From a virus: DNA of 64,000 bases. Made by a program: the position numbers and the translations under genes. Under the pieces are notes generated by a model. That model searched no databases and was not told the origin of the DNA. It worked only from the letters and a program-made list of their open reading frames with translations. The stretch is from positions 60,598 to 124,597 of IMG/VR virus record IMGVR_UViG_3300033233_000009; one strand, written 5' to 3'. Shown here piece after piece: positions 1-60,920 of this stretch. Each line of letters opens with the position of its first letter. The stretch's first letter is position 1.

Positions 1-157
1 AGGTGGGGGCGGATCGGATCTGGCTGAACCCGCGGGACCAGAGCACGGTCGTGGTGGCGGGCAGCGTCACTACCGAGGACTGGATCCGGTGCCCCGGGCT
101 CGGCTGCACATGGGTGTTCAAGATCGACGACTCGGTGGTTCACACCCGGGGGCCCTG

Positions 158-538
158 ATGGCGGGCATCTTCGACCACGAGACCGAGCAGGCCACCGACG
201 CGGCCGCGCAGGAAGCTGACAGCCAATCGGCGGACCTGATCCAGCAGGCGGTGCAGACGATGCAGGCCGTGCAGGCGAGCCTGCCGCGCGATCAGGGCAT
301 GGGCGTGTTCGCGTACGGCGCCCCGAGTGCGCCGGGCTGGCCGGCTGCGCCCCAGCCGTTCGTGCCGGCCACCCCCGTGCAGCCGATCCCAGTCCCATCG
401 CTCTGGATGGACCCGCCGCCGCCGCACGCCGATGCGGAGTTCGCGGCGCTGGGCAAGATCCTGGACGCCCTGGCTGGCCTTCCGCCCGAGGCGCAGAAGC
501 GGCTCGTGCGCTACCTCGCGTCGAGGTACGAGCCGTGA
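158..538 (+). CDS. hypothetical protein (Pro/Gln-rich)
   Basis: ORF 89..538; the ATG at 158 (MAGIFDHE) is the more plausible start; codon usage looks coding. Confidence 0.55.
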   Translation: MAGIFDHETEQATDAAAQEADSQSADLIQQAVQTMQAVQASLPRDQGMGVFAYGAPSAPGWPAAPQPFVPATPVQPIPVPSLWMDPPPPHADAEFAALGKILDALAGLPPEAQKRLVRYLASRYEP

Positions 539-662
539 CGGCTTGTGCTACCTTGCTCTGCAAGGCGTGGCGGCTCAATGGGTCCCCCCCCTCCTGTTGC
601 CTGTCGCGCCCAGCCTGTCCGTCGGGGAACCCCTGGCGGGCAGGCGCTTTGGGGGGAAGACG

Positions 663-905
663 GTGAGCGCGCGGGAGCCGCCTGCGTGGCTGGAGGCGCT
701 GGACACCGTGTTCTTCGGCATCGACTGGGCGGTGCTACTCGCGACGGTGGCCTTCGTGGTGCACGCGCTCGGCTGGAAGTCGCTGCCGGTCGTGTTCCTG
801 CCGCTGTTCTGCGCGTACTCGGTGGGCAAGCGGCTTGCGACCGACAAGTGGATGCGGGCGATGGACGCGAAGGTCGCCGAGCTGAAGAAGCGGGAGGAGC
901 GGTGA
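663..905 (+). CDS. small membrane protein
   Basis: GTG at 663; two hydrophobic segments (FFGIDWAVLLATVAFVV, LPVVFLPLFCAY); stop overlaps next start. Confidence 0.55.
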   Translation: MSAREPPAWLEALDTVFFGIDWAVLLATVAFVVHALGWKSLPVVFLPLFCAYSVGKRLATDKWMRAMDAKVAELKKREER

Positions 906-1141
906 TTGCGCGCAAGCGCAAGAAGGCGCCGCGAGCGCGCCTCGTGGTGAAGACGCCGGTGCGGTTCCGGGTGCACGCGATCATCAGCGAGAAGGTCGAG
1001 CAGGGTGTGCGCTACGGGTACAGCCGCGCGCACAAGCACACGAACACGCCGAACGCGGAGGCGTTCACCGAAGCCATCGAGCAGGCCGTCATGGACGCGC
1101 TGTCGGAGGTGATCGACTTCGAGCCGGAGTTCGACGAGTGA
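902..1141 (+). CDS. hypothetical phage protein
   Basis: GTGA overlap with upstream gene, GGAG RBS, acidic C-terminus. Confidence 0.6.
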   Translation: MIARKRKKAPRARLVVKTPVRFRVHAIISEKVEQGVRYGYSRAHKHTNTPNAEAFTEAIEQAVMDALSEVIDFEPEFDE

Positions 1142-1200
1142 AGACATCCGCGCGGCAGGCCCTTGCGTGCCCACCGAGCAGGTGTTATAGCGTCTGTACG

Positions 1201-1407
1201 ATGAAACAACGGTGGACGGCCGCGCGCGTACAGGCGGCCCGGAAGCGCCTGGCGCTGACGCAGGAGCAGTTTGCAGGGCTGCTCGGGGTCACGTTCGCGA
1301 CGGTCAATCGCTGGGAAGCCGGCCACTCCTCGCCGAGGGGGCTGTCCGTGCGGGCGCTGGATGCGCTGGCGATGCCGGGCGACGCCGGCAGCGGGAAGGG
1401 GCGGTAG
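1201..1407 (+). CDS. XRE/Cro-family HTH transcriptional regulator
   Basis: ARKRLALTQEQFAGLLGVTFATVNRWEAG is a canonical HTH_3 signature; TTGCGT-N17-TATAGC promoter-like element just upstream. Confidence 0.85.
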   Translation: MKQRWTAARVQAARKRLALTQEQFAGLLGVTFATVNRWEAGHSSPRGLSVRALDALAMPGDAGSGKGR

Positions 1408-1458
1408 GGGCAGTGCGGGCGACCCACGAGGCCGTGCAAGGGGCGCCGCCGAACTGAC

Positions 1459-1845
1459 ATGACGGACTTCGGAGGCATGGGCGGCGTGCAGGGCGGCCGA
1501 CCGCGGAACCCGGACGACCCGTTCGAGGCGGCGGTGGAGCGGGCGCTCGGCGAGCGGCTGCGCAAGGAACATGTCGGAGTGCCGCGCCTCGGCTGGTACG
1601 AGGGCAGGGCCATCGGCAATCGCCTGTGGGGCTCGCTCGCGAACGTGGACTGGACGCACGAGAACGGCGACACGGCGAGCTACTCGTTGCGGGCGGCCGG
1701 CGACCTGATCGCGGCCATCGTCGGCGAGGGCGACTACATGACCTACTACTGCTCCGCGGAGCACGGCGTCATCGACGAGGAGATCGCCGATGCGATGGCG
1801 CGCGAGGGCTGGACGGCGAGCGTGATGGAGGCGGAGGGAACATGA
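1459..1845 (+). CDS. hypothetical protein
   Basis: ORF with coding-like composition; ATGA overlap with next gene. Confidence 0.6.
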   Translation: MTDFGGMGGVQGGRPRNPDDPFEAAVERALGERLRKEHVGVPRLGWYEGRAIGNRLWGSLANVDWTHENGDTASYSLRAAGDLIAAIVGEGDYMTYYCSAEHGVIDEEIADAMAREGWTASVMEAEGT

Positions 1846-2123
1846 GCGTCACGACGATCACTGGGCTGTTGCTCGCTGCCGCGTGGGGTTGGTTGGGCTA
1901 CCGCCACGGGCGACGGAGCGGCATCCGGGCCGAGCGGCTGCGCGTGCTCTACGGCATGGACGTCGCCTTGAACCTCCTGTCGAGCCCGGCGCTCCACTAC
2001 CTGAACGGCTGGATTCGCGGGGACATCGACGAGGACTATCTCCGCGCCGGGGTCCGCGACTACGCGAAGCGGAAGCAGGAGAAGCACGAGGCGGAGCGCA
2101 AGCAGTGGAGGGGGCCACTATGA
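1842..2123 (+). CDS. small protein with N-terminal transmembrane helix
   Basis: ATG at 1842 after GGAGGG; ITGLLLAAAWGWLGY. Confidence 0.6.
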   Translation: MSVTTITGLLLAAAWGWLGYRHGRRSGIRAERLRVLYGMDVALNLLSSPALHYLNGWIRGDIDEDYLRAGVRDYAKRKQEKHEAERKQWRGPL

Positions 2124-2515
2124 GCCCGACTGCTGCCGCTGAGGCCGCGGAGCTACGCGCCGCCGAGCTAGCGCTCGGGAACCTGCCCGAGCGAGCGCTC
2201 ACGCTGCTGTACCGCTCGCTCGTGCAGAACCGCCACCTGAGCCCGCTGGAGCACCCGGCCCGGCCGATGACCGAGTGGGAGCTGGACGCCTTCCGTCAGG
2301 TCGAGGCGGAGTTCTTCACGCCGGACGGCACGCGCACGCTGCGCGTTGCCCCGGCCTTCGTGGACGCGGTGAACGCCGGGAACGTCCCTGTGCGACTGAC
2401 GGGCACGCCTCGGGATGTCTACTACTGCGGAAATTACAACGGCTGGGTCCAGCTACGGAAGCTGATCCCCGGCGAAGCGGTGTACGTGGACACGGAAAGA
2501 AAGGATCGAACATGA
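2120..2515 (+). CDS. ThyX C-terminal-fragment paralog, translationally coupled to the Cas12 gene
   Basis: HLSPLEHPARPMT and YCGNYNGWVQLRKLIPGEA match the C-terminal part of the ThyX at 7920-9167; lacks the RHR motif; ATGA overlap with cas12. Confidence 0.7.
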   Translation: MSPTAAAEAAELRAAELALGNLPERALTLLYRSLVQNRHLSPLEHPARPMTEWELDAFRQVEAEFFTPDGTRTLRVAPAFVDAVNAGNVPVRLTGTPRDVYYCGNYNGWVQLRKLIPGEAVYVDTERKDRT

Positions 2516-4629
2516 AACGTCGAACGTCCCAAGCATTGGTCGGTATCTGGACTGGATTCGCACGGCCGCCCGTGGAGGGGGCCGCTCTGGTGCGGCGAGA
2601 GCTGGAGAAGGCGCACGACTACTACAACCAGATCGTGCAGTTGGAGCTGGACAGGCGGACCCTGTACCGCGCTGCGCGCGGGACGGTCGGGGAGACCCTC
2701 ACCGCCCTCCAGGCGGAGATGGACGCGCTGAACGAGAAGATCACGGCGGAGGTCGGCGGCCTGCGCGCAGTGCGCCAGGCGGCGCGGACGCGCGTCGAGG
2801 ATCCCGCGGCGAGTGCCAGGATCAAGGCGGTGAAGGAGGAGCGGCGGGCGCTCGCCGAGCGGCTCAAGGCGGCGCGCGCGGAGGCCGAGAAGGTCTACGG
2901 GCCGGGCAACGAGGAGCTGAGCCAGCGGAGCGCCCGTCTGGCGGAGGGGAACACGGCGTCGCGCATCCGGGAGAAGACGAACCGCGCGGCGCTGGAGGAA
3001 ATGCTCACGGAGCCGGAGTGGGCTGACGAGTGGAAGATGGTCGCGCGGATCAATCACGACGCGAACGAGGTGAAGAAGCAGATCCGGGCCGCCTGTGGCC
3101 TCACCCCCGGCACGTACCTGCTGGTCGAGAAAGCGGTCGAGGCTGCGTTCGCGCCGCCGCCGAAGGGGCGGCCGCCGCGGCCCGACCCGCGCCCGAAGGA
3201 GCGGTTCATCGGCGAGGGGCGCCTCGGTGTGCAGGTGCACCGGCTGCCGGTGGCAGACCTGCTGGCGGGTCGCAACGGGCAGATCGCCCTGCGCATGAGC
3301 GACCGGCTCCCGAACGGAGCGAAGGCGGCGCAGCGGTACGGCACGCTGCGCATGCGGGTCACCACCGACGGTCAGTACGCCGAGTTCCCGGTGAAGCTCC
3401 ACCGGCCACTGCCGCAGGACGGGTTCATCACGCAAATCTGGATCCGCGCAGAGCGGCAAGGACCGCGGACGCTGTATTCGCTCCAGTGCGTCGTGGAGTC
3501 GCCGCAGTGGGCGAAGCCTGGCCCGGTCGAGGGTGCCGGGACGATTGCCATTGACACCGGCTGGCGCGTCATGGATGGCGGCATCCGGGTGGCCTACTGG
3601 ATGGACGACCACGGGCGGCACGGGCAGCTCCTCGTCCCGGAGGGGGTGCGGAAGGCGATCGACTACGCCGACGTGCTGCGCGGCCGGGCGGACGATCACT
3701 TCAACGCCGCGTGCGCGGAGTTGCGCGCGTGGATGGTCGCCAACCCGGGGCACGTCCCGGCCTGGATGCAAGCCGCGACGGCGACGATGCCGTACTGGCG
3801 CGCGCACGGGAATCTCATCCGGGTGGCCCGGCGGCTGGGGGCCGACCACGGCCTGTGGAAGCAGTGGCGCATCGACCGGAAGGCGGCGGGGCTCGACCTG
3901 TTCGGCACGTTCGCGGAGGTGAGCGCGTGGCTCCAGCAGAGGCATGCCGCGACGACGGCCCCCGTCCACCCGCTCATGCAGATCGCCGTCTACCTGGAGT
4001 GGTGGCGGCGGAAGGACGCGCACCTCTACGACTGGGAGATCCGCGAGCGGCGCTACGCCGAGAACGCGCGGACCGAGATGTTCCGCAAGGTCTGCCAGGT
4101 CGCCCGGCAGTACGAGCACGTGCTGGTCGAGAAGATCGACCTGCCGAAGTTCGCCAAGAACGCCTCGGCCGAGGAGAAGGTGAACCGGGACTGGCTGCAC
4201 CGGGTGGCGCGCATCGCATCGCCCGGCGACCTCGCCGCACGGCTCATGGAGACGTGCAAGGGGCAGGCGGAGAAGATGGCGCCGCACAACAACACGCGCA
4301 CGTGCCACAAGTGCGGTCACGTGAACAATGCGTGGGAGCGGCAGGCGGATAGGGTCCAGACCTGCGCGGGGTGTGCGGCGAGCTGGGACCAGGACGAGAA
4401 CGCTTGCCGGGTGATGCTGGCGCTGTGGCACGGGCATGCGCCCGGTGGCGAGCGCGAGCGGTCGGGTGATGCACCGACCACGGCACCCGCTCGCAGCGCG
4501 GAAAACAAGCCCGCTCGCAGCGGGGAAGTGGCAGATCGGCAGCCCACGGGGTCTTCCGATCTGGGGCGCCCGAGGGACCGCTCGCAAGGCGGTCGCCAAG
4601 GGCCCGAAAGGATAGCAGGGCCCGGATGA
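2512..4629 (+). CDS. cas12m: type V CRISPR effector, Cas12m (V-M/V-U1)-like, TnpB-derived, about 705 aa
   Basis: ATG at 2512 with AAAGGA RBS; N-terminal AHDYYNQIVQLE plus long coiled coil; GLTPGTYLLVE; GEGRLGVQ; KLHRPLP; RuvC-I IAIDTGWR; RuvC-II VLVEKIDL; Zn finger CHKC..CAGC; RuvC-III WDQDENAC; CRISPR array begins 4 nt after the stop. Subtype judged from recalled motifs only. Confidence 0.8.
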   Translation: MKRRTSQALVGIWTGFARPPVEGAALVRRELEKAHDYYNQIVQLELDRRTLYRAARGTVGETLTALQAEMDALNEKITAEVGGLRAVRQAARTRVEDPAASARIKAVKEERRALAERLKAARAEAEKVYGPGNEELSQRSARLAEGNTASRIREKTNRAALEEMLTEPEWADEWKMVARINHDANEVKKQIRAACGLTPGTYLLVEKAVEAAFAPPPKGRPPRPDPRPKERFIGEGRLGVQVHRLPVADLLAGRNGQIALRMSDRLPNGAKAAQRYGTLRMRVTTDGQYAEFPVKLHRPLPQDGFITQIWIRAERQGPRTLYSLQCVVESPQWAKPGPVEGAGTIAIDTGWRVMDGGIRVAYWMDDHGRHGQLLVPEGVRKAIDYADVLRGRADDHFNAACAELRAWMVANPGHVPAWMQAATATMPYWRAHGNLIRVARRLGADHGLWKQWRIDRKAAGLDLFGTFAEVSAWLQQRHAATTAPVHPLMQIAVYLEWWRRKDAHLYDWEIRERRYAENARTEMFRKVCQVARQYEHVLVEKIDLPKFAKNASAEEKVNRDWLHRVARIASPGDLAARLMETCKGQAEKMAPHNNTRTCHKCGHVNNAWERQADRVQTCAGCAASWDQDENACRVMLALWHGHAPGGERERSGDAPTTAPARSAENKPARSGEVADRQPTGSSDLGRPRDRSQGGRQGPERIAGPG

Positions 4630-4632
4630 CGG
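4454..4632 (+). promoter_or_regulatory. putative CRISPR leader overlapping the cas12 3' end
   Basis: 10-bp inverted repeat GCGAGCGGTC (4454-4463)/GACCGCTCGC (4576-4585); 13-nt direct repeat CCCGCTCGCAGCG (4486, 4510); partial repeat GTCGCCAAGG at 4592. Confidence 0.55.
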
Positions 4633-6289
4633 GTCGCCAAGGCAGCGCGGGGCCTTCGACGCCGCGACCCGCGCGTCCGTCCATGCGTAGTGCGCGCCGC
4701 TGGGTCGCCAAGGCAGCGCGGGGCCTTCGACGCCGCGACCCGCTGCCGCTCGCCGGGGCCGGCTCGGAGGAGCTGCCGTCGCCAAGGCAGCGCGGGGCCT
4801 TCGACGCCGCGACGCGCGATCGACGTCCTTCCGCGCGGCCTCCACCTTGTCGCCAAGGCAGCGCGGGGCCTTCGACGCCGCGACTGTGCGCCCGTTAGTC
4901 TACTCCATGCGCCTCCGGCGGTCGCCAAGGCAGCGCGGGGCCTTCGACGCCGCGACTGGCGGCCCGCCTCCCTCCGGTGCGGTGCGCTCCGGGTCGCCAA
5001 GGCAGCGCGGGGCCTTCGACGCCGCGACAACGAGGCGCCGCCCGACGGCATCGACGACATCGCGGAGGAGGTCGCCAAGGCAGCGCGGGGCCTTCGACGC
5101 CGCGACTGGGGCAGGGAGCCGGATCGGGTGTATGCTTGGGCTTGGGTCGCCAAGGCAGCGCGGGGCCTTCGACGCCGCGACTGCTCTCTCTCTCTCCTTC
5201 TCTATTTTTCTCCTCTCTCTGTCGCCAAGGCAGCGCGGGGCCTTCGACGCCGCGACGCGTGCTCCGTGTCGGGGGACGGCTCCTCCGTTGCGTCAAGTCG
5301 CCAAGGCAGCGCGGGGCCTTCGACGCCGCGACGACAGGCGCTTCGGGAGCACATGATTCGCGAGCTGGGTCGCCAAGGCAGCGCGGGGCCTTCGACGCCG
5401 CGACAAGCCGGTTTGGTCCTCCCGGCTGGCGGCCCTGCTCGGGTCGCCAAGGCAGCGCGGGGCCTTCGACGCCGCGACCTTTCCTGTTGGTGCGACGGGC
5501 ACGGAGACCCGTCCAGTCGCCAAGGCAGCGCGGGGCCTTCGACGCCGCGACCTCCCGTGGACAGCCCCGTGTGCTTGGCAACTTCGAGGTCGCCAAGGCA
5601 GCGCGGGGCCTTCGACGCCGCGACTAGTCGCTCGGCTGCAGCAGCAAGTCGGAGAGGACGACGGTCGCCAAGGCAGCGCGGGGCCTTCGACGCCGCGACC
5701 TCGCAACATGCAGAGGGTCAGGGGACGCCCCTCGCCGAGGGTCGCCAAGGCAGCGCGGGGCCTTCGACGCCGCGACTATCCGCTCCGCCCGATCAGACGC
5801 TGCGCCCGTCGGAGTCGCCAAGGCAGCGCGGGGCCTTCGACGCCGCGACGAGATCCTCGGCGAGCAAGACCCGGTGGCCCCTCACCAGTCGCCAAGGCAG
5901 CGCGGGGCCTTCGACGCCGCGACCATCCCGCCCTGGAGTGAGTCCGACCTGCGCCACAAGGTCGCCAAGGCAGCGCGGGGCCTTCGACGCCGCGACGAGC
6001 ACGCCGTCGGTGAAGAGGCGGATTTCTACTTCGTCGCCAAGGCAGCGCGGGGCCTTCGACGCCGCGACCGAGGGTCCGAGTGGAGCTGGGGTCGCTGATG
6101 CCGGAGTCGCCAAGGCAGCGCGGGGCCTTCGACGCCGCGACCGGGGCTGGATACTGTGACAATCGCCCGGGCAGCAATGCATGTCGCCAAGGCAGCGCGG
6201 GGCCTTCGACGCCGCGACCCGTGCTTGCCGACGAGGATGCGGCGCGCGTCGGAGTCGCCAAGGCAGCGCGGGGCCTTCGACGCCGCGAC
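4633..6289 (+). CRISPR. CRISPR array: 23 identical 36-nt repeats GTCGCCAAGGCAGCGCGGGGCCTTCGACGCCGCGAC and 22 unique spacers of 35-42 nt
   Basis: Repeats counted at 4633, 4704, 4778, 4849, 4921, 4993, 5071, 5146, 5221, 5297, 5369, 5443, 5516, 5589, 5664, 5741, 5814, 5888, 5961, 6033, 6106, 6183, 6254; orientation inferred from cas12 and leader position. Confidence 0.98.
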
Positions 6290-6313
6290 TGGTAAGCGCT
6301 GGCGGGGGGCGCC

Positions 6314-6348
6314 TTGACGCCGGTGCTGCCACCGGCTAAGGTGCCGCC
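6314..6348 (+). promoter_or_regulatory. sigma70-type leaderless promoter
   Basis: TTGACG-N17-TAAGGT-gccgcc-ATG(6349); near-identical copy on the minus strand at 45733-45775. Confidence 0.7.
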
Positions 6349-6558
6349 ATGTACCGTGACTTCGGGGAGAACATCCAATTCCCGCGTGGCGTCGCCGCAG
6401 AGGTCGAGAACCGGGCCGACGACGCGATCGTGCGCCTGTGCTTCACGACCCTGGAGCAAGGGGAGGCATGCGTGCAGACGCTGCGTGAGGCCGCCGACCG
6501 GATGGAGAAGGAGCTGACGCTGTGGCGGAAGGCCCAGAGCGAGGGGAAGTGGCTGTGA
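6349..6558 (+). CDS. hypothetical protein
   Basis: ATG directly after the promoter; overlaps next gene. Confidence 0.6.
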   Translation: MYRDFGENIQFPRGVAAEVENRADDAIVRLCFTTLEQGEACVQTLREAADRMEKELTLWRKAQSEGKWL

Positions 6559-6752
6559 AGCTCGTCGAACGCTGGCCACTCACGATCCTTTACCTGCTGC
6601 TCCTCGGAGTGACGGCGGTTCTCGGAAGCGTCTTCGCGGCGATACTGTGGAAGCTGGGCCCGTGGTGGACCGGAGGGGGCCTGGTCGTCTCGATGTTCTG
6701 TGCGTTCGTGGAGATCGACCGACGGGCGCAGCGGCGAGGAGGACGGCGATGA
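6555..6752 (+). CDS. small membrane protein (2 TM)
   Basis: GTG at 6555; ILYLLLLGVTAVLGSVFAAILW. Confidence 0.6.
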   Translation: MKLVERWPLTILYLLLLGVTAVLGSVFAAILWKLGPWWTGGGLVVSMFCAFVEIDRRAQRRGGRR

Positions 6753-7018
6753 CTGAGGTTACTCTCCTCTGGAGCTTGGCATGCATCTTCACGGGGCTCG
6801 CATGGTACCGGTACGGGCTTCGTAAAGGCCGCCGAGAGGTCCGCGATGCCGCGCTGACGGCCATCGTCTCCGCGCTGCACGAGGTGCGGACGAGAGAGGC
6901 AGTCGCGACGGTCGGCAGCCTCTACCGGGTCGTCGATGGCGAGTGGACCGACGAGCAGATGCGGGATCAGATACGGGCGATACAGTCGGAAACACGGGAG
7001 ATCGGGAGGCAGCGATGA
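6749..7018 (+). CDS. membrane-anchored hypothetical protein
   Basis: ATG at 6749 with GGAGG RBS; N-terminal TM followed by YGLRKGRRE, similar in layout to 1842-2123. Confidence 0.55.
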   Translation: MTEVTLLWSLACIFTGLAWYRYGLRKGRREVRDAALTAIVSALHEVRTREAVATVGSLYRVVDGEWTDEQMRDQIRAIQSETREIGRQR

Positions 7019-7320
7019 GGGGCTTGGCGTTAGGTCTGTTCAGCGTGCTCGGGGTCGTGATCATCGGGTCCATGGTCGTTGGAGTCCACGAACTGCTCGA
7101 CCGCCTTGCGCGCGACGCGGCCGGCTCCTGCTGGGTGGACCCGCGCCCCGAAGTGCGACTCGACTTCGACTTCTACACCGGCATCGACGGGCAGCTGTCG
7201 CGCTGCGGGTACTCGCGGGGCACGCTGGGTAGGGCGCAAGCCATCGCTGGAGATCCGCGTGAGGGCTTCGTCGATGTCGTCCGCTGCTACCCGCTCGCCA
7301 GGAAGGAGTGCCCGAAGTGA
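7015..7320 (+). CDS. membrane-anchored hypothetical protein
   Basis: ATG at 7015 with GGAGG RBS; N-terminal TM. Confidence 0.55.
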   Translation: MRGLALGLFSVLGVVIIGSMVVGVHELLDRLARDAAGSCWVDPRPEVRLDFDFYTGIDGQLSRCGYSRGTLGRAQAIAGDPREGFVDVVRCYPLARKECPK

Positions 7321-7565
7321 AGGTCGCGCTGAACATCGTGCTGTTCTCGGCATTCATCTTTCTCGGCTTCATGCTCGGGCGCGTCCACGAGATGAATGAC
7401 CACGCCGAGCGTGACGTGAAGGAGTGCTTCGCTTGCGGTCAGACGCAGGCGTGCGCATTCGGTCCCGGCATCGTTGGCGTGCAGTCGTGCGAGGTCGGCT
7501 ACAAGTGGGGCCGCTGCGAGCCGGACCCGCGGTTCAAGGTGCCGCGCGAAGGAGAGGTCAAGTGA
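7317..7565 (+). CDS. membrane-anchored Cys-rich protein
   Basis: N-terminal TM; CFACGQTQAC..GVQSC..WGRCE disulfide-type motif. Confidence 0.55.
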   Translation: MKVALNIVLFSAFIFLGFMLGRVHEMNDHAERDVKECFACGQTQACAFGPGIVGVQSCEVGYKWGRCEPDPRFKVPREGEVK

Positions 7566-7641
7566 CCCAGACCGAAGAAGAAGCCACGCAGAAGTACGCG
7601 CGTGAACTGGACGTGCGAACCGTCGGGAGCATCCGGTACTG

Positions 7642-7923
7642 ATGCGCGAGCGAACGATCCTCGCGCCAGGTGCCTACGCGGTGCCGCTGGCGGACTACCC
7701 GAAGTGCAAGCACTGCGGCGCGCTCAAGTACGCGGTCTTCGACGCGTCGCCCGGCGGCTTCAGCGGCGGCTCGGAGCACATCCACGCCCCGCACTGCCCC
7801 GAGCTTCGGTGCGAGCACGGCGTCCTCTGGGCCTACGAGTGCGAGAAGTGCGAGGCCGCGGACGAGGCACGCAGGAAGCAGGAAGCGGAGTTGTCCCGGT
7901 TCCGGGACGAGGAGTACCAATGA
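7642..7923 (+). CDS. Zn-finger hypothetical protein
   Basis: CKHC, CEHG..CEKC. Confidence 0.55.
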   Translation: MRERTILAPGAYAVPLADYPKCKHCGALKYAVFDASPGGFSGGSEHIHAPHCPELRCEHGVLWAYECEKCEAADEARRKQEAELSRFRDEEYQ

Positions 7924-9167
7924 GCTACGACGCGAAGATCCTGGCAGACTCGATCACGGAGCACGGCGAGCGCCTGACCACGTTCGAGGTCACGTTCCCG
8001 CGCATCGTGCTCGCTGAAGTGAATACGCACCGGATGCTGAGCCGGAACAGCGCCTCGTCCCGGGCCACCCCGGTCGCGAAGAAGATCGCGCAGATCGAGG
8101 TCGATCCGTTCATCCCGGCGGCGTTCATCAAGAACCAGAAGGGGATGCAGGGCGCGGAGGCGCTGGACGACGCCATGGCGCTGGAGGCCGAGGCGTGGTG
8201 GCGGCAGGGAGTGACCGGCGCGCTCAGTGTCGCCAGGGCGCTGTCCGGCGCGGGGCTACACAAGGCGCTCGCGAACCGCGTGCTCGAACCCTACGCCTGG
8301 CACACCGCTATCCTGTCGGCGACCGACTGGTCGAACTTCTGGCACCTGCGTGTGAACCCGGACGCGCAGGGGGAGTTCCGCACGGCGGCGGAGATGATGC
8401 TCGCGCTCTACGAGAAGCACGAGCCGACGTTGCTCGGGGACGACGACTGGCATCTGCCGCTGGTATCGGAGGAGGAGCGCGACGCCGCGCTGCCAGGTAC
8501 GCCGGCAGAGGTGCATGCAGCAGATCAGCGCCTCGTGAAGATCAGCGTGGCCCGTTGCGCTCGCGTCTCGTACCTCACGCACGACGGAGTCCGGGACCAG
8601 GCGGAAGACCTGGCTCTCTACGAGAAGCTCGTCACGGGCGGCCACCTGAGCCCGCTGGAGCATGTGGCGCGGCCGATGACGACCTACGAGCGAACACGGT
8701 TCGAGCAGATCCCTCACATGTGGGACGGACGTGTCTGGATCTGGGCAGGCCAGCGGACGACGCACTACCTCGGCAACTACGATGGGTGGGTCCAGCACAG
8801 GAAGCTCGTCCCCGGCGAGGCGGACATCCTCGGGTACCGAGCGCGAGTCGAGAAGGACTGCGAGCAGATGGGGGCCATGTGCGCCGCGTACGAGGAGAAG
8901 TTCAAGATGCAGCGCGAGATCGTCTGCGCTGCGCAGGACTGGCGGAAAGAGGACATGGATCGGGAGGCAGAGGCGCACGAGGAGACGGGACGCGGCCTGC
9001 TCGACACGCTCGCCGACGCCGTGGACGCTCTGAACGAGTGGGTGAAGGAGCGCGCCGCGGAGCGCGCGGGGTCGTTCACCTGTCCGACCTGTGGCCCCCA
9101 CGTCAAGGCGGACGAGGACGGATGCTGCGCGACGTGCGGCGCGGATTGCAAGATGGAGGGCGCGTGA
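7920..9167 (+). CDS. thyX: FAD-dependent thymidylate synthase with C-terminal extension
   Basis: MSYDAKILADS..RLTTFEVTFPRIVLAEVNTHRMLSRNSASSRA (ThyX motif); NFWHLR; SVARCARVSY; HLSPLEH; extra C-terminal Zn ribbon CPTC..CATC. Confidence 0.9.
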   Translation: MSYDAKILADSITEHGERLTTFEVTFPRIVLAEVNTHRMLSRNSASSRATPVAKKIAQIEVDPFIPAAFIKNQKGMQGAEALDDAMALEAEAWWRQGVTGALSVARALSGAGLHKALANRVLEPYAWHTAILSATDWSNFWHLRVNPDAQGEFRTAAEMMLALYEKHEPTLLGDDDWHLPLVSEEERDAALPGTPAEVHAADQRLVKISVARCARVSYLTHDGVRDQAEDLALYEKLVTGGHLSPLEHVARPMTTYERTRFEQIPHMWDGRVWIWAGQRTTHYLGNYDGWVQHRKLVPGEADILGYRARVEKDCEQMGAMCAAYEEKFKMQREIVCAAQDWRKEDMDREAEAHEETGRGLLDTLADAVDALNEWVKERAAERAGSFTCPTCGPHVKADEDGCCATCGADCKMEGA

Positions 9168-10924: not shown

Positions 10925-10960
10925 CAACCCAAGGCAGCGCGGGGCCTACGACGCCGCGAC
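10925..10960 (+). CRISPR. solitary CRISPR repeat (31/36 identical to the array repeat)
   Basis: caacCCAAGGCAGCGCGGGGCCTaCGACGCCGCGAC, intergenic, followed by 18 nt and then the TTGACA promoter. Confidence 0.9.
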
Positions 10961-40254: not shown

Positions 40255-41985
40255 ATGACCTCCATGGCCGCCGTCGTCCAGGGCACCGAGCGCTGGCACG
40301 TGCAGCACGCCGATTGCCGGTTCGCGCTCTCGTGCCTGCCCGATGCGTGCGTTGACGCGATCGTGTGCGATCCACCGTACGACCTCACGGCGGGCAAGAA
40401 GGGCGGCACCGGCGTCGCATCGCTGAACCTGAACTCACCCGCAGGTCGCGCGCGCATCTCGACCGGCTTCATGGGCAAGGCGTGGGACGGCACCGGGATC
40501 GCATTCGACCCGGCGATGTGGGCCGAAGCTCTCCGCGTTCTCAAGCCCGGCGGTCACCTGCTCGCGTTCGGCGGGACGCGGACCTACCACCGCATGACGT
40601 GTGCGATCGAGGACGCCGGCTTTGACGTTCGGGACTGTTTGGCATACATGTACGGCACCGGCTTCCCCAAAAGCCTCAACGTGCACGAGTCGGCGCGTGG
40701 GCTATACTGCGAGTGTGGTGACAGCGACGTGCACGGAGTGCGGGGCTCGGTACGAGACGCAAGCTTGCTGGCTCAAGCGAGTGAAGCGACCGAAGTGCTC
40801 CAGGGAGTGCAACGGAGCGGAGCGCGGTCGTCAGTGGGCGACGTTCGGTCACATGGGCCCGAAGGCGAAGACGGCGGAGTCGCTCAGGCGAGCGGCGGAC
40901 AAGATGCGTGGGCCACGGAACCCGGCCTGGAAGGGCGGGGCGACGTACTTCCGGAAACACGGGAATTACAAGCCGATCCGATACGTCAGATGTCCAGCGG
41001 AGCTAGCGTCGATGGCCCGCAAGGACGGATACGTGATGGAGCATCGGCTGCTCATGGCGCGGATGGCGAAGCGCCCGCTCGACCGCGTCGAGGTCGTGCA
41101 CCACGTGGACCACGACCCGCAGAACAATACGCCGACGAATCTGGAGCTGTGGCCAGACAACCGGTCACACAAGTTGGCGGAGCATGGCCGACATGTGGAA
41201 GGTGCGGCAAACCGCGTATCCCCTCCGGTTTCGGTACCGCGCTCAAGCCCGCCTTCGAGCCGGTCGTCCTCGCGCGAAAGCCCCTCGGCGGAACCGTCGC
41301 CGCGACGTTCATGGAGCACGGGACGGGCGCGCTGAACATCGACGGGTGCCGGATCGGAACGACCGTGGAAACATGGCCAGAGAGTCGCACATGGGGGCGT
41401 CCGCCGGTGCCAACGGACTGCAGCACCGGCAGCCCCGGCAGCACCGGCAGCCCGCCGCCCGGCCGCTGGCCTGCCAACGTGCTCCTCGACGCGGACGCGG
41501 CCGAAGTACTCGACGAGCAGGCGGGCGCTGTCACGCGCAACGGCGGCGGCCGGCAAATCTGGGGCGCGAGGAACACGAACGGTCCTGTACCAGACAGCGG
41601 TTACGCGGACTCCGGCGGACCATCGCGGTTCTTCTACACGGCGAAGGCGTCCAGATCCGAGCGCGACGCCGGTCTCGACGACTTCGACGCGCGGGCCGCT
41701 GGCGAGGCGACCGGGCGCAAGGACGGCAGCGCGGGACTCACGCCGCGAGCCGGTGCGGGTAGAGCTACCCGCACCGGCGTCCGCAACACTCACCCGACGG
41801 TCAAGCCCGTCGATCTGATGCGCTGGCTCGTGCGACTCGTCTGTCCGCCCGGCGGCATCGTGCTCGACCCGTTCGCTGGCAGTGGGACCACCGGCGTCGC
41901 CACGATGCTGGAAGGCTCCGGCCGACGCTTCATCGGCCTGGAACTCGACCCGCTGCACGTCGATGCGATCGGGGGAACGCCGTGA
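40255..41985 (+). CDS. N6/N4 DNA methyltransferase (beta class) with a large internal insertion
   Basis: DAIVCDPPY; GFMGKAWD; LRVLKPGGHLLAFGGTRTYHR; YGTGFPKS; GTALKPAFEP; GRWPAN; HPTVKP; VLDPFAGSGTTG. Confidence 0.92.
   Translation: MTSMAAVVQGTERWHVQHADCRFALSCLPDACVDAIVCDPPYDLTAGKKGGTGVASLNLNSPAGRARISTGFMGKAWDGTGIAFDPAMWAEALRVLKPGGHLLAFGGTRTYHRMTCAIEDAGFDVRDCLAYMYGTGFPKSLNVHESARGLYCECGDSDVHGVRGSVRDASLLAQASEATEVLQGVQRSGARSSVGDVRSHGPEGEDGGVAQASGGQDAWATEPGLEGRGDVLPETRELQADPIRQMSSGASVDGPQGRIRDGASAAHGADGEAPARPRRGRAPRGPRPAEQYADESGAVARQPVTQVGGAWPTCGRCGKPRIPSGFGTALKPAFEPVVLARKPLGGTVAATFMEHGTGALNIDGCRIGTTVETWPESRTWGRPPVPTDCSTGSPGSTGSPPPGRWPANVLLDADAAEVLDEQAGAVTRNGGGRQIWGARNTNGPVPDSGYADSGGPSRFFYTAKASRSERDAGLDDFDARAAGEATGRKDGSAGLTPRAGAGRATRTGVRNTHPTVKPVDLMRWLVRLVCPPGGIVLDPFAGSGTTGVATMLEGSGRRFIGLELDPLHVDAIGGTP
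40715..41335 (+). CDS. nested HNH endonuclease in the +1 frame inside the methyltransferase
   Basis: CTECG..KCSREC; GPRNPAWKGG; DGYVMEHRLLMA..RPL..EVVHHVDHDPQNNTPTNLEL..H..EH; TATACT at 40703, 6 nt before the GTG. Confidence 0.8.
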   Translation: MVTATCTECGARYETQACWLKRVKRPKCSRECNGAERGRQWATFGHMGPKAKTAESLRRAADKMRGPRNPAWKGGATYFRKHGNYKPIRYVRCPAELASMARKDGYVMEHRLLMARMAKRPLDRVEVVHHVDHDPQNNTPTNLELWPDNRSHKLAEHGRHVEGAANRVSPPVSVPRSSPPSSRSSSRESPSAEPSPRRSWSTGRAR

Positions 41986-42076
41986 CCACCTGCCACCACT
42001 GCCTCGCCCAGTTCGCCCCCCGACGAGTGCTGGCCGAGGCGCGGCGATTGTGCGACCGGCGGAGACGGGGTGTGCG

Positions 42077-43246
42077 GTGCTGACGAATCTGCAGAAGACG
42101 CCCTTTCCATGGTTCGGCGGGAAATCCGACGCTGCCCCATCCGTGTGGACCGCGCTGGGCGATGTCGATCACTACGTCGAGCCGTTCGCCGGCTCGCTCG
42201 CGGTGCTCCTCCGCAGGCCGCACCCGTGCAATCGGAGCTACTTCTCCGAGACCGTGAACGACCTCGACGGCCTGCTCGTGAATGCGTGGCGCTCCATGCA
42301 ACTCTCGCCCGACGCAATGGCTGATGCGGCGTCGTGGCCCGTCTCTGAGGCGGACATGCATGCGCGGCACTTGGCGCTCGTGAAGTGGCGGAACGAACGG
42401 CAGCTGGAGCACCTGATGGGCGACCCGGCGTTTCACGATCCGGTCATGGCCGGCTGGTGGTGCTGGGGCCAAGCGTGCTGGATCGGCTCGGGCTGGTGCG
42501 ACGGCGGAGGCGGGTGGATCGTGGGCGCGGACGGGCGGATTACGAAGGCGGCGCGCGAGCCGAACGGCATCGGGAAGCGCCAGCTCCCCCACCTCAGCAA
42601 CGACGGCCAAGGCGTGAACCGGCCGCAGGCACGCGAGCCGGGCGTGTCGCGCCAGCTCCCCCACCTCGGCGACGACGGCCAAGGCGTGAACCACGCCGGA
42701 GCGCGAGAGCCGGGCGTCGAGATCGACCACGAGTATCACCCGATGACGATGCCGGAACTGACCCGCTGGTTCCGCTTCCTGTCCGCGCGGCTGCGCCACG
42801 TGCGGATCCTCAATGGCGACTGGAAGCGCGCGCTGACCAACGGCGCAGCGAAGACGCTCCCTGTCCGCATGGGCGGGGCGTGCGGCGTGTTTCTCGATCC
42901 GCCCTACGCCGACACGGCCAAGCGCCAGAGTAACCTGTACGCGCACGACTCGGGAACGGTGGCGCACGAGGTCCGCGAATGGGCGCTCGCGCACGGGGAC
43001 GATCCGCAATTCCGGATCGTGCTCGCCGGGTACGCGGAGGAACACGTCATGCCGGACGGGTGGCGCGAAGTGGAGTGGTTCCGCAAGGGGTTCCTCAAGG
43101 GCGGCATGGGCAATCAGAGCGAGGGGCACGAGTCGCACCAGCAGCACAAAGAGAGGCTGTGGATGAGTCCGCATTGCCTCGCGCCGGAACTCGCGAAGCC
43201 GGCGGCACAGATGGCGATGTTCGACGCGCTCGGAGCCGCCCCATGA
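42077..43246 (+). CDS. D12-class (Dam-like) N6-adenine DNA methyltransferase
   Basis: PFPWFGGKS; YVEPFAGS; ETVNDLDG; VFLDPPY; ERLW; internal 24-aa tandem duplication. Confidence 0.88.
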   Translation: MLTNLQKTPFPWFGGKSDAAPSVWTALGDVDHYVEPFAGSLAVLLRRPHPCNRSYFSETVNDLDGLLVNAWRSMQLSPDAMADAASWPVSEADMHARHLALVKWRNERQLEHLMGDPAFHDPVMAGWWCWGQACWIGSGWCDGGGGWIVGADGRITKAAREPNGIGKRQLPHLSNDGQGVNRPQAREPGVSRQLPHLGDDGQGVNHAGAREPGVEIDHEYHPMTMPELTRWFRFLSARLRHVRILNGDWKRALTNGAAKTLPVRMGGACGVFLDPPYADTAKRQSNLYAHDSGTVAHEVREWALAHGDDPQFRIVLAGYAEEHVMPDGWREVEWFRKGFLKGGMGNQSEGHESHQQHKERLWMSPHCLAPELAKPAAQMAMFDALGAAP

Positions 43247-45106: not shown

Positions 45107-45589
45107 ATGCTCCAGGCCACACGCATCGCATCTCGCATGTACCAGGGGCCCTGCCCCCCATCGACCGATGCCGTGCGGGGACACCGGTTCACCGTGCTCG
45201 TGTTCTGCGCGCGCGAGATTCAGCCGTACCTGCCGGACCACCTGCTCCGCGGGCTCGACGTGCTGTACGTGCCGCTGAACGACAGCTTCAACGAGCCGAT
45301 GACCGACGCCGAGTGGGACCTCGCGCACGGCGCGGGCAGGGAGGTGGCCCGACTCACTGCGCTCGGTGGGCGCTCGCTAGTGACGTGCGCGGCGGGCCTG
45401 AACCGCTCGGGCATCGTGAACGCCATCGCGCTCCACTACCGCTTCGGCTGCTCGGGCGCCGGGGCCATCGCTCAAATCCGCGCGACGCGCGGACCGCAGG
45501 CGCTGAGCAATCCGAGCTTCGAGCGCCGCCTGGTCAAGCTCGGTTCACGACGGCGCAGACCCCATGCCGCCGCGGGGCCGGCGTCGTAG
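45107..45589 (+). CDS. dual-specificity/tyrosine phosphatase-like protein
   Basis: VPLND; LVTCAAGLNRSG (CX5R); AIAQIRATR..ALSNPSF. Confidence 0.82.
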   Translation: MLQATRIASRMYQGPCPPSTDAVRGHRFTVLVFCAREIQPYLPDHLLRGLDVLYVPLNDSFNEPMTDAEWDLAHGAGREVARLTALGGRSLVTCAAGLNRSGIVNAIALHYRFGCSGAGAIAQIRATRGPQALSNPSFERRLVKLGSRRRRPHAAAGPAS

Positions 45590-45732
45590 GCCCCGCGCTG
45601 CCTTGGTGCTCTCGACAAGACGACGTCGCGGTGTCGTAGGCCCCGCGCTGCCTTGGGAATGGGGACCGGCATGGGGCCGTCAAGCCTGTACTGCTCGCCG
45701 TGACGTTGGAGGCCCCACGTTGCCTTGCAGGC
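45575..45732 (-). CRISPR. degenerate CRISPR mini-array (3 repeats; spacers of 36 and 14 nt)
   Basis: Minus strand: gcctgCAAGGCAaCGtGGGGCCTcCaACGtCaCGgC (45697-45732), attcCCAAGGCAGCGCGGGGCCTaCGACaCCGCGAC (45625-45660), agcaCCAAGGCAGCGCGGGGCCTaCGACGCCGgccC (45575-45610). Confidence 0.9.
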
Positions 45733-45775
45733 ACATGGCGGCACCTTAGCCGGTGGCAGCACCGGCGTCCAGGCG
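45733..45775 (-). promoter_or_regulatory. promoter of the mini-array, duplicate of 6310-6352
   Basis: TGGACG-N17-TAAGGT; 42/43 identical to 6310-6352. Confidence 0.75.
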
Positions 45776-57910: not shown

Positions 57911-60436
57911 TCATGCGGCCGCCTTGCTCTTGCCCTTGGGGTCACGGATCGCGAGCACGCGCTTCGCGTACGGCGGGGGCGGGTAGGACTTCTCCCAGTC
58001 CACGGCGGGGTCGAGCACGCCGACCACGAGCTGACAGCCGCGCGGCGGCTCCTTCGGCCAGGGCGTCGCGCCGTCAGTGAGCACGATGATCACCTTGCTC
58101 TGGAGCTTCTGGGCGGCGGCGATCCCGACGCCCATGTCCGTGCCGCCACCGCCCGCCAGCTCCACGTCGAGCGCGCTCGATACGCGCTGCGCCCCACCGT
58201 GTACCGCCGCATCGCAGCAGAGCACCGGCACCTTGCGCTGCCCGACCACGCGCAGGATGCCCTGCACCTCGCAGAGCGCGCGCGCGAGCAGGTCGCCGCC
58301 CATGCTGCCCGACGTGTCCAGCACGACCGACGCCTCCGGGCAGGGTCGGACCAGCGCAGGCATGAGCACGCCACCGAAGCTGCCGCGGCGGCTCACCTTC
58401 GTGTACGAGTAGTCCACCGCGCCGCGCGCCATGGTGACGGCGGTCTTGACCAGGGCCGACAGCTCGCGCTCCCAGGGCACGACGGCCGGCTCCAGCAGGG
58501 TTTCGGCCCAGCGCTTCCAGCCGGCCGGCACGCTGCCGGGCGCCCGTTGCGCGGCGGACTGAATCTCCGCTGCGACCTGGCGCCGGAGCAGGTCGCCCTC
58601 GGCCTCACCGATACCGGGCGCCTTCTTGCCCGGCTCACCGGTGCCCGGCGCGGGCAGCTCGTACGGCCGCGCCACGCCGTGCGCGCCACTCCCGCAGTCG
58701 CACTTCTCGGGCAGCGAGCCGTCCCCCGCGGGTTTGCCGGGGGCCGGGTGCCTGCCCGACGGCTGGGGCTTGCCCAGGCCCTGGCCGGGGCTCCCTCCGC
58801 CCGGCTGGCCACTTCCCGCCTTGCCGCCGCCACGCTTCGGCGGCGGGTTAGCGAGCATCATCTGGTAGTACTCCTCCCACAGCTTGCCGTCGGGCCAGCC
58901 GAACTTGCGCGGCAGCGGCGGGTCCCCGGGGAGGTGCAGCTTCATCTCCGGCGCCTCTTTCTCCGCCTCGAAGTCGTCGTTGATCTCCAGATCCTCGCAG
59001 TTATGAACGAGTAGCCCTTCGGCGACGTACGTGTGGTCGCTCGTCTCCATGTTGTAGACAGGCCCACTGTAGGGCTCACTCGTAACGCTGCGCACCGGCA
59101 CGGCGATTCCACCATCGACCGGTTTCCATCGGCGTGCGTACGAGGAGAACGTGCGCCCCTTGAACGTACGGGGAGATTGGGCTGGCTCCCAGCGCCAGCC
59201 CACACTGAACAGCTTGTTCGCTGATTGGATGAGTTTGCCGAGAATCCTCCGACCCGCCTTCTGCACTCTGCTCGTCTGCCACGTACCGAGGCCCAGCCGG
59301 CAGAGGAGCAAGCGTACCTGTACGGCAAGGCCAGCACTTGCTGTCGATAGGACAACGTGCTGGTTCGATGTGGAGCCGTCTCCGGCCAAGAGCCCCTCTA
59401 GGTAGGCACGTACGATAGCGAGGTCCGTGTGGTGCACGATGAACCAAGGCACCTTCTTCTGGAGAGCGCCGTCGCCGCACCACTCCTTGAGCGCCCGCGC
59501 CAGCACGGGGCCGCTGAGGTAAACGGTGATGGAGCCCGCGGCACCCGCTTTACCGGCGTGGCTTGTGACGGTCCCCGCAAACCCATGCGCGACCGCAATA
59601 CCAGCAGCCCGAGCCACGAGTGCCTGTTCTCGCGGGCCCAGCGATAAGTTCGCCGACCGCCTTCCGCTGCCTTCTGCCGTGTAGAGGCCCAGCAGCCATG
59701 CTGTTTCCGTATTCAACACGAACTCGCGCTGCGTGCAGCGGGACGCAAGCGAGTTGCCGCCTTCTCGCATGTACGGCTCCAGGCTGAACACCGTGTCCGT
59801 CACGGTGCCCGGAAGGCTCGGGATGACCACGTAGTCTGTCTCGGTCAGCGTTCCGGCTTCTGCCCACTCTGGCTCCTTGAGCCGAATCGGTGTCAGCCCC
59901 TTCTTGTGACGCCGCCGTACGACGCGCAGAGGATGCTCCGGTGTGCACCGTAGGACGGCACCAGCCGCACGGATCGTCAGCAGCGGCCCCTCGTACTGAC
60001 GCACCATCGGCGTCACCACCCGCACCCGTCCCGCGGCACCGACGGTTTCGGTACGCGGCGCCTCAACGGGCAGGCCATCCCCCAAGATCGTACCTGGTGG
60101 GAAGCAGACGTTGACCCGGTACGCCGTCTCCTCGACCTCCTCGATCGGCGCCTGGCGGATGAGATGCTCCGCGCGCTCGTGGTGCTTGCGGAGCCAGTGC
60201 CCCAGCTCGTGCACGAGCACCGCCGCGCACTGCTCCGCGGTCCACTGCTCTCCCGACGCGGTGCTGCCGGTGCCGATGCGGGCCGGGTTGATGTAGACCC
60301 GCCCGTACTTGTCCACCGCCATGGTCTCGACGCGAGACTCGGCGACGAGGTGCATGGCGAACAGCGCAGTCGCGAAGTAGGGCCGCTTGTGCGCGGCCAG
60401 GAAGCGAACCGAGGCGATCTTGGTGCTGTCGTCCAT
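57911..60436 (-). CDS. DUF2201-type HEXXH metallopeptidase-VWA protein, intein-containing
   Basis: TMAVD..YINP; VHELGH; N-V-[intein]-CEDLEIN; DCGSGAHG; VVLDTSGSM; GGGGTDM; LTDGATPWP. Confidence 0.88.
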   Translation of the reverse strand: MDDSTKIASVRFLAAHKRPYFATALFAMHLVAESRVETMAVDKYGRVYINPARIGTGSTASGEQWTAEQCAAVLVHELGHWLRKHHERAEHLIRQAPIEEVEETAYRVNVCFPPGTILGDGLPVEAPRTETVGAAGRVRVVTPMVRQYEGPLLTIRAAGAVLRCTPEHPLRVVRRRHKKGLTPIRLKEPEWAEAGTLTETDYVVIPSLPGTVTDTVFSLEPYMREGGNSLASRCTQREFVLNTETAWLLGLYTAEGSGRRSANLSLGPREQALVARAAGIAVAHGFAGTVTSHAGKAGAAGSITVYLSGPVLARALKEWCGDGALQKKVPWFIVHHTDLAIVRAYLEGLLAGDGSTSNQHVVLSTASAGLAVQVRLLLCRLGLGTWQTSRVQKAGRRILGKLIQSANKLFSVGWRWEPAQSPRTFKGRTFSSYARRWKPVDGGIAVPVRSVTSEPYSGPVYNMETSDHTYVAEGLLVHNCEDLEINDDFEAEKEAPEMKLHLPGDPPLPRKFGWPDGKLWEEYYQMMLANPPPKRGGGKAGSGQPGGGSPGQGLGKPQPSGRHPAPGKPAGDGSLPEKCDCGSGAHGVARPYELPAPGTGEPGKKAPGIGEAEGDLLRRQVAAEIQSAAQRAPGSVPAGWKRWAETLLEPAVVPWERELSALVKTAVTMARGAVDYSYTKVSRRGSFGGVLMPALVRPCPEASVVLDTSGSMGGDLLARALCEVQGILRVVGQRKVPVLCCDAAVHGGAQRVSSALDVELAGGGGTDMGVGIAAAQKLQSKVIIVLTDGATPWPKEPPRGCQLVVGVLDPAVDWEKSYPPPPYAKRVLAIRDPKGKSKAAA
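59000..60106 (-). mobile_element. intein with LAGLIDADG homing endonuclease (about 369 aa)
   Basis: Starts CFPPGT; block B CTPEHP; LAGLIDADG motifs WLLGLYTAEGS and YLEGLLAGDGS; ends VYNMETSDHTYVAEGLLVHN followed by Cys; visibly lower GC. Confidence 0.93.
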
Positions 60437-60449
60437 GGCAGATCCTACG

Positions 60450-60920
60450 TCAGAGCCAGCGGGTAGCTTCCTCGGAAAGTTCGTAGCACCGCCGCCGGGC
60501 GCGTTCGATGCCGAGCAGGATGCGGGTCGCTGCCTCGACGTTGGTGCCTGCGCGACGGGCCAGGTCAGCCGCGGCCGTCCGCACGTCGAAGAACTTGCGC
60601 GGCTCGCCCTGCACCGGGACCACCGTGAGCAGGGGGACCAGCATGTGCTCCGGGCGCCCTGGTTTCACCCCGCCCTGAGAATGCGAGGGTGTCAGGTGCA
60701 GCCGTGCCATTACGCCGCGCGGCAGCGCGACCCGCACGTACTCGCGACCGGTCTTGCTGGCTCGCATAGCGATGCCGGCGAGGAGCCCCGCGTCACGCAG
60801 CGACGCACGTGTGTCCCGGAAAACCCCCAGGCCCTTCGTGATCGGCGCCAGGACGGCCGCGCCGCCGCCCGCTCCGCCGAGCGTCGCGGCGACAATCTCC
60901 CGTTGCAGGTTCGCGCGCAT
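60450..60920 (-). CDS. hypothetical protein
   Basis: MRANLQRE, in the operon between the MoxR and VWA genes. Confidence 0.5.
   Translation of the reverse strand: MRANLQREIVAATLGGAGGGAAVLAPITKGLGVFRDTRASLRDAGLLAGIAMRASKTGREYVRVALPRGVMARLHLTPSHSQGGVKPGRPEHMLVPLLTVVPVQGEPRKFFDVRTAAADLARRAGTNVEAATRILLGIERARRRCYELSEEATRWL

Follow-up and report, generated by a model that had tools for sequence, protein, structure and literature searches.

The 64-kb stretch of viral DNA analyzed here (the window) encodes a 705-amino-acid (aa) protein, P0001, which by sequence and modeled fold is an effector of the Cas12m family (CRISPR type V-M) rather than a TnpB-like intermediate. The window makes up the final 64 kb of a linear, 124,597-bp IMG/VR virus record (IMGVR_UViG_3300033233_000009, here G000), which CheckV estimates to be 69% complete; positions without a prefix are those of the window. 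A large CRISPR array lies directly behind the gene, on the same strand. We think it probable that P0001 only binds DNA and that it is directed mainly at related viruses or at other mobile elements. Its RuvC site keeps an intact aspartate-glutamate-aspartate (D-E-D) triad, which taken alone matters little, since this triad is the norm in the family and four orthologs that carry it showed no cleavage of double-stranded DNA (dsDNA). The clade that holds P0001 is well supported and had no name before; its members are longer Cas12m proteins (~700 aa) with large arrays, and they occur on related virus contigs of high GC content. Spacers that match the virus's own genome, together with satellite guides placed behind a promoter-like element, give a testable lead on how viruses may use a binding-only CRISPR effector.

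Sequence and fold place P0001 in Cas12m

An earlier reading of the window, made from the letters alone (the sequence-only reading), had proposed a Cas12m-type effector of a phage, and both the sequence and the predicted fold now place P0001 in Cas12m. In a phmmer search of PDB sequences, the best match is 23vw_A, titled "CRISPR-associated DNA-binding protein Cas12m" (E = 7.5e-37). Cas12m2 (1.7e-12, over residues 278 to 637 of the query) and UnCas12m4a (4.7e-09) come next, with TnpB (0.012) and Cas12f (0.059) far behind. Searches of Pfam and NCBIfam returned only sub-threshold matches to TNB and TnpB, and the curated TnpB models were not reached: NF038281 (IS200_TnpB) scored 17.7 bits against a cut-off of 425, and NF040570 scored 11.3 against 100. 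An AlphaFold2 model of P0001, built from 17 homologs, has a mean predicted local distance difference test (pLDDT) score of 80.9. Its four top Foldseek matches are all Cas12m structures (8hhl, 8pm4, 8hio, and 8hhm; E = 6.5e-26 to 5.5e-22), with Cas12f and TnpB next at ~1e-9. By these matches, the model has the Cas12m fold, which comprises a WED domain, a REC lobe with a coiled coil, a RuvC domain with a long helical insertion, and a TNB finger.

The start codon, ATG at 2512, shares bases with the stop codon of the preceding gene (ATGA) and has AAAGGA a short distance 5' of it, and the N-terminus MKRRTS is common to the homologs. In the PDB sequence search, the acidic residues D348, E540, and D628 fall on the RuvC sites of Cas12m chains of solved structure, so homology and not chance accounts for them. 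In TnpB and Cas12f, the D and the E of this site are roughly 90 aa apart. The spacing is 192 aa in P0001, and the corresponding distances are 168 aa in MmCas12m (H317/D485) and 175 aa in GoCas12m (H322/D497), with residue numbers as given in PMC11013384 and PMC10442227. The structures that match best, MmCas12m2 (8hhl, 8hio) and GoCas12m (8pm4), have Foldseek E-values of 6.5e-26 and 2e-24 and TM-to-target scores of 0.63 to 0.64. Their RuvC motifs are similarly spaced, but they are only 19 to 20% identical to P0001, and their triad is H-D-D. The best sequence match is to D-E-D-type Cas12m (examples are MsCas12m and 23vw_A), which aligns in three stretches: the N-terminus, WED/RuvC-I, and RuvC-II/TNB/RuvC-III. 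It has the same D, E, and D and the same zinc-finger positions, and it likewise has a single CRISPR RNA (crRNA), no trans-activating CRISPR RNA (tracrRNA), and no adaptation genes. At 577 aa, however, it is ~125 aa shorter than P0001, which has a 62-aa disordered tail over the array leader and an extra helical REC segment (columns ~150 to 200 of the homolog alignment, A1) and sits on a virus record. In alignment A1, R92 is invariant within a basic R-x-R/K-R-V stretch; the alignment to Cas12m2 begins only at residue 278. In Cas12m2, an Arg-rich cluster of REC (R111/R112/R126) holds the non-target strand.

Could P0001 instead be an evolutionary intermediate between TnpB and Cas12m, as the sequence-only reading had suggested? 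P0001 shares a RuvC fold, a TNB zinc finger, and the D-E-D triad with TnpB and Cas12f, and its weak matches of TnpB/Cas12f type are confined to the TNB zinc-finger region. The 3' end of the gene also overlaps an RNA-related array leader, which superficially resembles the overlap of TnpB with its omega-RNA. However, TnpB has ~400 aa, a 3' omega-RNA, and no CRISPR array; here there are no transposon ends, and a 23-repeat array takes the place of the omega-RNA or single guide RNA. The IS200_TnpB score is far below its cut-off, and both the fold (about 1e-26 to 1e-22 for Cas12m, as against ~1e-9) and the full-length alignment are those of Cas12m. P0001 is not a short Cas12m either: it is longer than the family median of 621 aa (165 aligned proteins) and has a full REC lobe and the 192-aa RuvC insertion. 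It is also nested within a radiation of D-E-D Cas12m-like proteins with 3,093 representatives at E ≤ 1e-30. Its placement already contradicts an intermediate position, which we regard as very improbable.

An intact D-E-D site is usual among Cas12m proteins

The sequence-only reading was correct that the D-E-D triad and the C4 zinc finger are intact, as D348/E540/D628 and C598/C601/C618/C621 are all located in the translated open reading frame (ORF). Its premise that characterized Cas12m proteins have substituted RuvC sites holds for the Mm and Go prototypes only, since four D-E-D proteins have been tested (PMC11013384). A profile search of 1.84 billion representative sequences gave the 3,093 proteins mentioned above, and we aligned 18 earlier homologs with 147 new ones from the best 150 of these. 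Across the 165 proteins, the RuvC columns read DED in 129, NED in 15, NDD in 5, HDD in 2, and DAD in 2, with 12 other patterns found once each; the zinc finger is CCCC in 144. An intact D-E-D site is therefore the usual state in the family, as judged from these sequences. In a midpoint-rooted FastTree phylogeny of 172 sequences, which carried no labeled references, P0001 falls in a clade of 10 members (support, 1.0), all of them DED, and the enclosing clade is DED in 30 of 32.

What do the tested relatives do? Bigelyte et al. (2024; PMC11013384) assayed eight Cas12m variants (four D-E-D, two H-D-D, and two N-D-D) and found dsDNA cleavage in none, while six of the eight bound DNA in a manner dependent on a protospacer-adjacent motif (PAM). 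Purified MsCas12m and GoCas12m showed no target cleavage and no collateral cleavage of DNA or RNA. In MsCas12m, D274 is described as a "predicted RuvC catalytic site residue," and it was mutated as a D274A control (PMC11013384). According to Omura et al. (2023; PMC10442227), Cas12m clades 3 and 4 have DED, and a change of HDD to DED in Cas12m2 did not restore cleavage. In addition, 23vw_A, the nearest solved relative, has D, E, and D at the same columns and is titled as a DNA-binding protein. Because most relatives have D-E-D and D-E-D orthologs did not cut, the triad gives little reason to expect a nuclease.

The array, its repeat, and its probable leader

The array has a homologous counterpart in the same place in each of five metagenome loci (L023 to L027) that encode relatives of P0001 at 58 to 66% identity. 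An alignment of 13 repeats, some of this clade and others of distant virus loci, supports a pseudoknot by covariation, with columns 8-11 paired to 20-23 and 14-19 to 29-34. The pseudoknot cells pair in 88.5% of cases, compared to 66.5 ± 2.6% in shuffles (0 of 500 reached the observed value); 9 of the 10 pairs vary on both sides, and controls with slid partners gave at most 44%. The repeat resembles the Cas12m2 crRNA in having the 3' strand of the stem at -8 to -3 and in ending with AC, as described in PMC10442227. By eye, G13/A35 here, which is A13/G35 in L024 to L027, also looks similar to the G(-23):A(-2) pair of Cas12m2.

Within positions 1 to 8000 and outside the array, the repeat has no exact complement of more than 9 nt, so the sequence-only statement that there was no tracrRNA candidate stands, and the system appears to work with a single crRNA and to be free of tracrRNA. 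Pfam searches gave no match to cas1, cas2, or cas4 in the 124.6-kb record, itself an estimated 69% of the genome; the control searches were positive in 6 to 9 of 14 genomes. L024, L025, and L026 are near-identical and share spacers in order, and L025 lacks the gene-proximal spacer of L024 and L026. This suggests that spacers turn over, by gain or loss, at the end of the array next to the gene. Such differences between near-identical relatives suggest that spacers are still being gained or lost without viral adaptation genes.

The sequence-only reading had set aside a low-complexity tail, leaving a protein of about 640 aa, and this division has held up. Residues 644 to 705 have pLDDT values below 50, and the last 62 codons lack the coding signature of the gene body: their G+C content at third codon positions (GC3) is 0.68 in this gene, compared to 0.93 in the body. 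The same is seen in 5 of 5 loci (GC3 of 0.58 to 0.76, compared to 0.82 to 0.93), in which G+C at second positions is also raised. What is conserved in the tail is a set of nucleotide blocks, comprising two blocks with CCGCTCGC, a short hairpin (GACCGC...GCGGTC), and a partial repeat (GTCGCCAAGG, at 4593-4602 here), with unalignable sequence between them. In all five loci, TGA stands immediately 5' of repeat 1. The last 62 codons are thus probably DNA of the array leader, translated only for want of an in-frame stop codon before the leader's end, and we read the functional protein as one of ~640 aa.

In L010, a contig of an archaeal metagenome-assembled genome that encodes an N-D-D homolog, dozens of irregularly spaced repeat units flank the cas12m-like gene, and the commonest 16-mer is present in 27 copies. 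A human-fecal phage record in GenBank (MT835686.1:18621-18673) holds 53 nt that match the repeat region at 88%, a site matched by 14 repeat copies; it may be a solitary repeat-like unit.

Spacer matches and satellite guide units

Spacer 5 is identical to a site in its own genome (Table 1). The protospacer lies on the sense strand of G000:53956-54360, a gene in a putative virion module for a 134-aa, repeat-containing, probable membrane protein with a hydrophobic C-terminus. The 5' flank of the protospacer is ...GCTCGG, and the 5 nt on its other side, CTCGC, resemble the start of the repeat, GTCGC. We searched six virus records for self-matches at E ≤ 1e-3 (G000 to G004 and virus Rctr197k) and found them in two, G000 and G001; G002, G003, G004, and Rctr197k had none. 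G001 (locus L002) is a complete virus of 80,138 bp with terminal repeats, and its Cas12m is 30% identical to P0001. There, it is again spacer 5 that has a self-match (34 of 35 positions; G001:15319-15353), which falls in a 559-aa ORF of unassigned function, on its sense strand. One match between relatives was also found: 31 of the 38 positions of spacer 2 of L027 match G000 (E = 3e-8), within a DnaC/IstB-like gene beside a DnaB helicase gene, and such a match indicates that the spacers of this clade are drawn from related viruses. The 5' flanks seen are CGG and ACA at the self-matches in G000 and G001, respectively, and TTG at the L027 near-match.

Other searches for targets gave little. Blastn of the whole array against GenBank phages returned weak or repeat-like matches only, and in five IMG/VR records of viruses with Cas12m the spacer matches were short and weak. 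Pattern scans of IMG/VR found no match to the first 24 nt of spacer 5 or to codon-degenerate forms of spacers 18, 6, and 10, and a scan with the repeat core gave none either. A sample of 401 Myxococcota genomes gave 20 weak matches (best E, 4.5e-6 per genome), several of them across repeat-spacer borders, which we took to be chance.

Guide units are also present away from the main array. The solitary unit and the mini-array in the window (Table 1) keep the 3' portion of the repeat, and the loss of conservation before position 5 in solitary units is as expected if the 5' end of the repeat is trimmed. The solitary unit lies 2 nt after the stop codon of a DUF3310 gene, and its would-be guide runs over the TTGACA box of the next operon. 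The gene downstream of the main array starts with a promoter-like element, of which an exact copy reads into the mini-array; another copy, degenerate with 6 mismatches, lies at ~52907 (minus strand). The satellite guides have no other match in G000 with 4 or fewer mismatches in 18 to 20 nt, save one 4-mismatch match taken as chance. In G001 there are four arrays, at L002:7786-8805 (15 units), ~41851-42245 (6 units), 60432-60540 (2 units), and 71810-72800 (15 units). The three extra ones keep the 3' handle and have a degenerate 5' end, as do the satellites of G000. G002 also has a second array.

Binding, cleavage, or self-regulation

By analogy with the characterized relatives, we infer that P0001 would process its own crRNA, bind DNA in a PAM-dependent manner, and silence its targets without cleavage. 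The array would be transcribed in the direction of the gene, either by read-through or from the leader, which lies within the gene's 3' tail, a part that is translated but not constrained. Each repeat would be trimmed by Cas12m near its 5' end, to give a crRNA, without tracrRNA, in which a pseudoknotted handle of ~31 nt with AC at its end precedes the spacer. This complex would bind PAM-flanked dsDNA and block transcription or replication without cutting it, while D348, E540, and D628 might bind Mg2+ and keep the displaced strand in place. Such a system would probably help the virus to compete against related viruses, or against other mobile elements, that share its host. Several observations weigh against this account. 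Apart from the own-genome match of spacer 5, no protospacer was found for the 22 spacers among GenBank phages, the 401 Myxococcota genomes, or the IMG/VR scans. In the near-match of L027 (flank, cTTG), the mismatches fall on spacer bases 1 to 3, the PAM-proximal end. The flanks of the two self-matches are not T-rich, and tolerance of these spacers may mean only that a PAM is missing. A scan of 2200 to 6700 for the sigma-70 consensus found no promoter. Finally, D-E-D is kept in 12 of the 12 closest homologs and in all 6 virus-borne homologs examined, which points to selection on the site for some function; that function could be catalysis.

It is the last of these points, together with the near-uniform D-E-D of the enclosing clade, that would favor an active RNA-guided DNA nuclease or nickase, with a two-metal D-E-D site as in Cas12f and TnpB. 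Omura et al. (PMC10442227) speculated that the D-E-D clades 3 and 4 might hydrolyze DNA, and the published negative assays cover four D-E-D orthologs, apparently none of them from the clade of P0001. However, none of those four cleaved (PMC11013384), the engineered DED form of Cas12m2 gained no cleavage (PMC10442227), and among the titles and abstract openings listed in a literature search on Cas12m and nickases, none reports a cutting Cas12m. Moreover, two independent virus genomes retain spacers that match their own sequence perfectly or nearly so, a burden for an effector that cuts, provided that the matched sites have a PAM. Tolerance of a perfect self-match is more readily explained by a binder than by a cutter, though the argument is a weak one. 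In all, we consider a nuclease unlikely. The same self-matches can be read in another way, in which the system mainly regulates the virus's own genes and Cas12m, programmed by its guides, represses late or structural genes of the virus. Both self-matches are on the sense strand, one of them in a gene of the putative virion module; G001, in which the Cas12m is so divergent, has three extra arrays; and the mini-array of G000 is placed behind a copy of a viral promoter-like element. Yet self-matches occur in only two of the six records, their flanks may lack a PAM, and adaptation that acts on replicating viral DNA can be expected to yield some spacers from the virus itself. The satellite guides, with their single chance-level match, also find no clear target elsewhere in G000. 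A mainly self-regulatory role thus seems to us rather improbable, more so than a nuclease.

It is tempting to go further and see virus-borne D-E-D Cas12m proteins as programmable repressors aimed at both their own genes and related viruses, with extra guide units scattered over the genomes, some of them behind copies of viral promoters. We hold this to be a long shot, but if true, it would be a natural CRISPR interference circuit inside a virus. Under the binding-only reading that we prefer, P0001 would offer tool builders one more compact natural DNA binder, with a PAM that is possibly not T-rich.

Other virus-borne Cas12m systems

Carriage of type V-M systems by mobile elements and viruses is already known, from plasmids, prophages, and a phage in print. 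A preprint (bioRxiv 10.64898/2026.09.14.751636) describes MvCas12m of myxophage MV-1, a 610-aa protein with D305/E463/D555 and eight spacers. As described there, it resembles the present system in being a virus-encoded V-M effector with D-E-D and an adjoining array, with no cas1, cas2, or cas4 and no tracrRNA. It differs in size (610 aa and 8 spacers, compared to 705 aa and 22 spacers here). The preprint claims the first phage Cas12m. This priority is doubtful, because a 2024 review (PMC11656645) states that V-M is "also encoded by some prophages" and the record of virus Rctr197k (KX853510.1) argues against it as well. Rctr197k encodes a homolog, 25.8% identical across 88% of P0001, that carries the annotation "similar to transposase" and is accompanied by a CRISPR repeat_region. 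Like P0001, it has D-E-D, a C4 finger, and an array directly downstream on the same strand, with ~21 repeats of 36 nt that end in GAGAC. Unlike P0001, it belongs to another clade and has no self-matching spacer at the threshold used.

IMG/VR holds at least five more contigs with homologs (L002 to L006; 23 to 30% identical), all D-E-D, of which L004 and L005 encode the same protein. A multi-repeat array lies directly downstream on the same strand in four of the five (L002 to L005), and L006 has only a pair of repeat-like units. The virus-borne homologs do not group with P0001 in the FastTree phylogeny, which implies that carriage of Cas12m by viruses arose more than once.

Feature coordinates and virus context

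Table 1. Positions of the cas12m-like gene, its motifs, the CRISPR array, and the satellite units in the window
Feature	Position	Strand	Details
cas12m-like gene	2512..4629	+	P0001, 705 aa; stop-free frame; folded core, residues ~1-643
RuvC-I motif	3544..3567	+	IAIDTGWR, D348; residues 345-352
RuvC-II motif	4120..4143	+	VLVEKIDL, E540; residues 537-544
C4 zinc finger of TNB domain	4303..4374	+	C598/C601/C618/C621; weak Pfam Cas12f1-like_TNB match, residues 584-633
RuvC-III motif	4384..4407	+	WDQDENAC, D628; residues 625-632; D626 and D628 invariant in homolog alignment A1
Disordered C-terminal tail, probably translated array leader	4441..4629	+	From pLDDT, GC3, and nucleotide blocks
CRISPR array	4633..6289	+	23 identical 36-nt repeats and 22 spacers of 35-42 nt; starts 3 nt after cas12m stop
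Spacer 5	4957..4992	+	Sequence match, 36/36 identical to own genome at G000:54153-54188, 6.4 kb before window start
Promoter-like element	6316..6351	+	TTGACG-17 nt-TAAGGT-6 nt-ATG, after array; next gene starts at 6349; missed by sigma-70 consensus scan
Solitary repeat unit	10925..10960	+	Positions 5-36 kept with 1 change; positions 1-4/5 diverged
Mini-array	45578..45733	-	From repeat search: degenerate repeat, 33-nt spacer, repeat (45660-45625), 18-nt spacer (45624-45607), truncated repeat
Second exact copy of promoter-like element	45734..45769	-	36/36; reads into mini-array

Twenty large proteins of the record were scanned against PHROGs or Pfam. No capsid, portal, terminase, or tail protein was matched among them, including those of the putative structural module that lies before the window (G000:26000-60000). 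As virion protein families were not found, the status of G000 as a virus rests on its IMG/VR record class. The matches among the 20 were RecE, RecT, DnaB, a ChlI-like ATPase, ThyX, DUF3310, an integrase, and a D12 methylase, as well as a weak IstB-like match and DUF2201 with an intein. ThyX and RecT gave only distant tblastn matches, to phages of many phyla.

Directly 5' of cas12m and translationally coupled to it is a gene for a 136-aa protein (2105-2515, plus strand), a paralog of residues 233 to 301 of the ThyX-domain ORF at 7920-9167 (plus strand; 42% identity over 91 aa, E = 1e-17). On the opposite strand, 57911-60436 encodes an 841-aa DUF2201/VWA-like protein of metallopeptidase type with LAGLIDADG and intein-splicing matches, and this may be an intein-containing gene.

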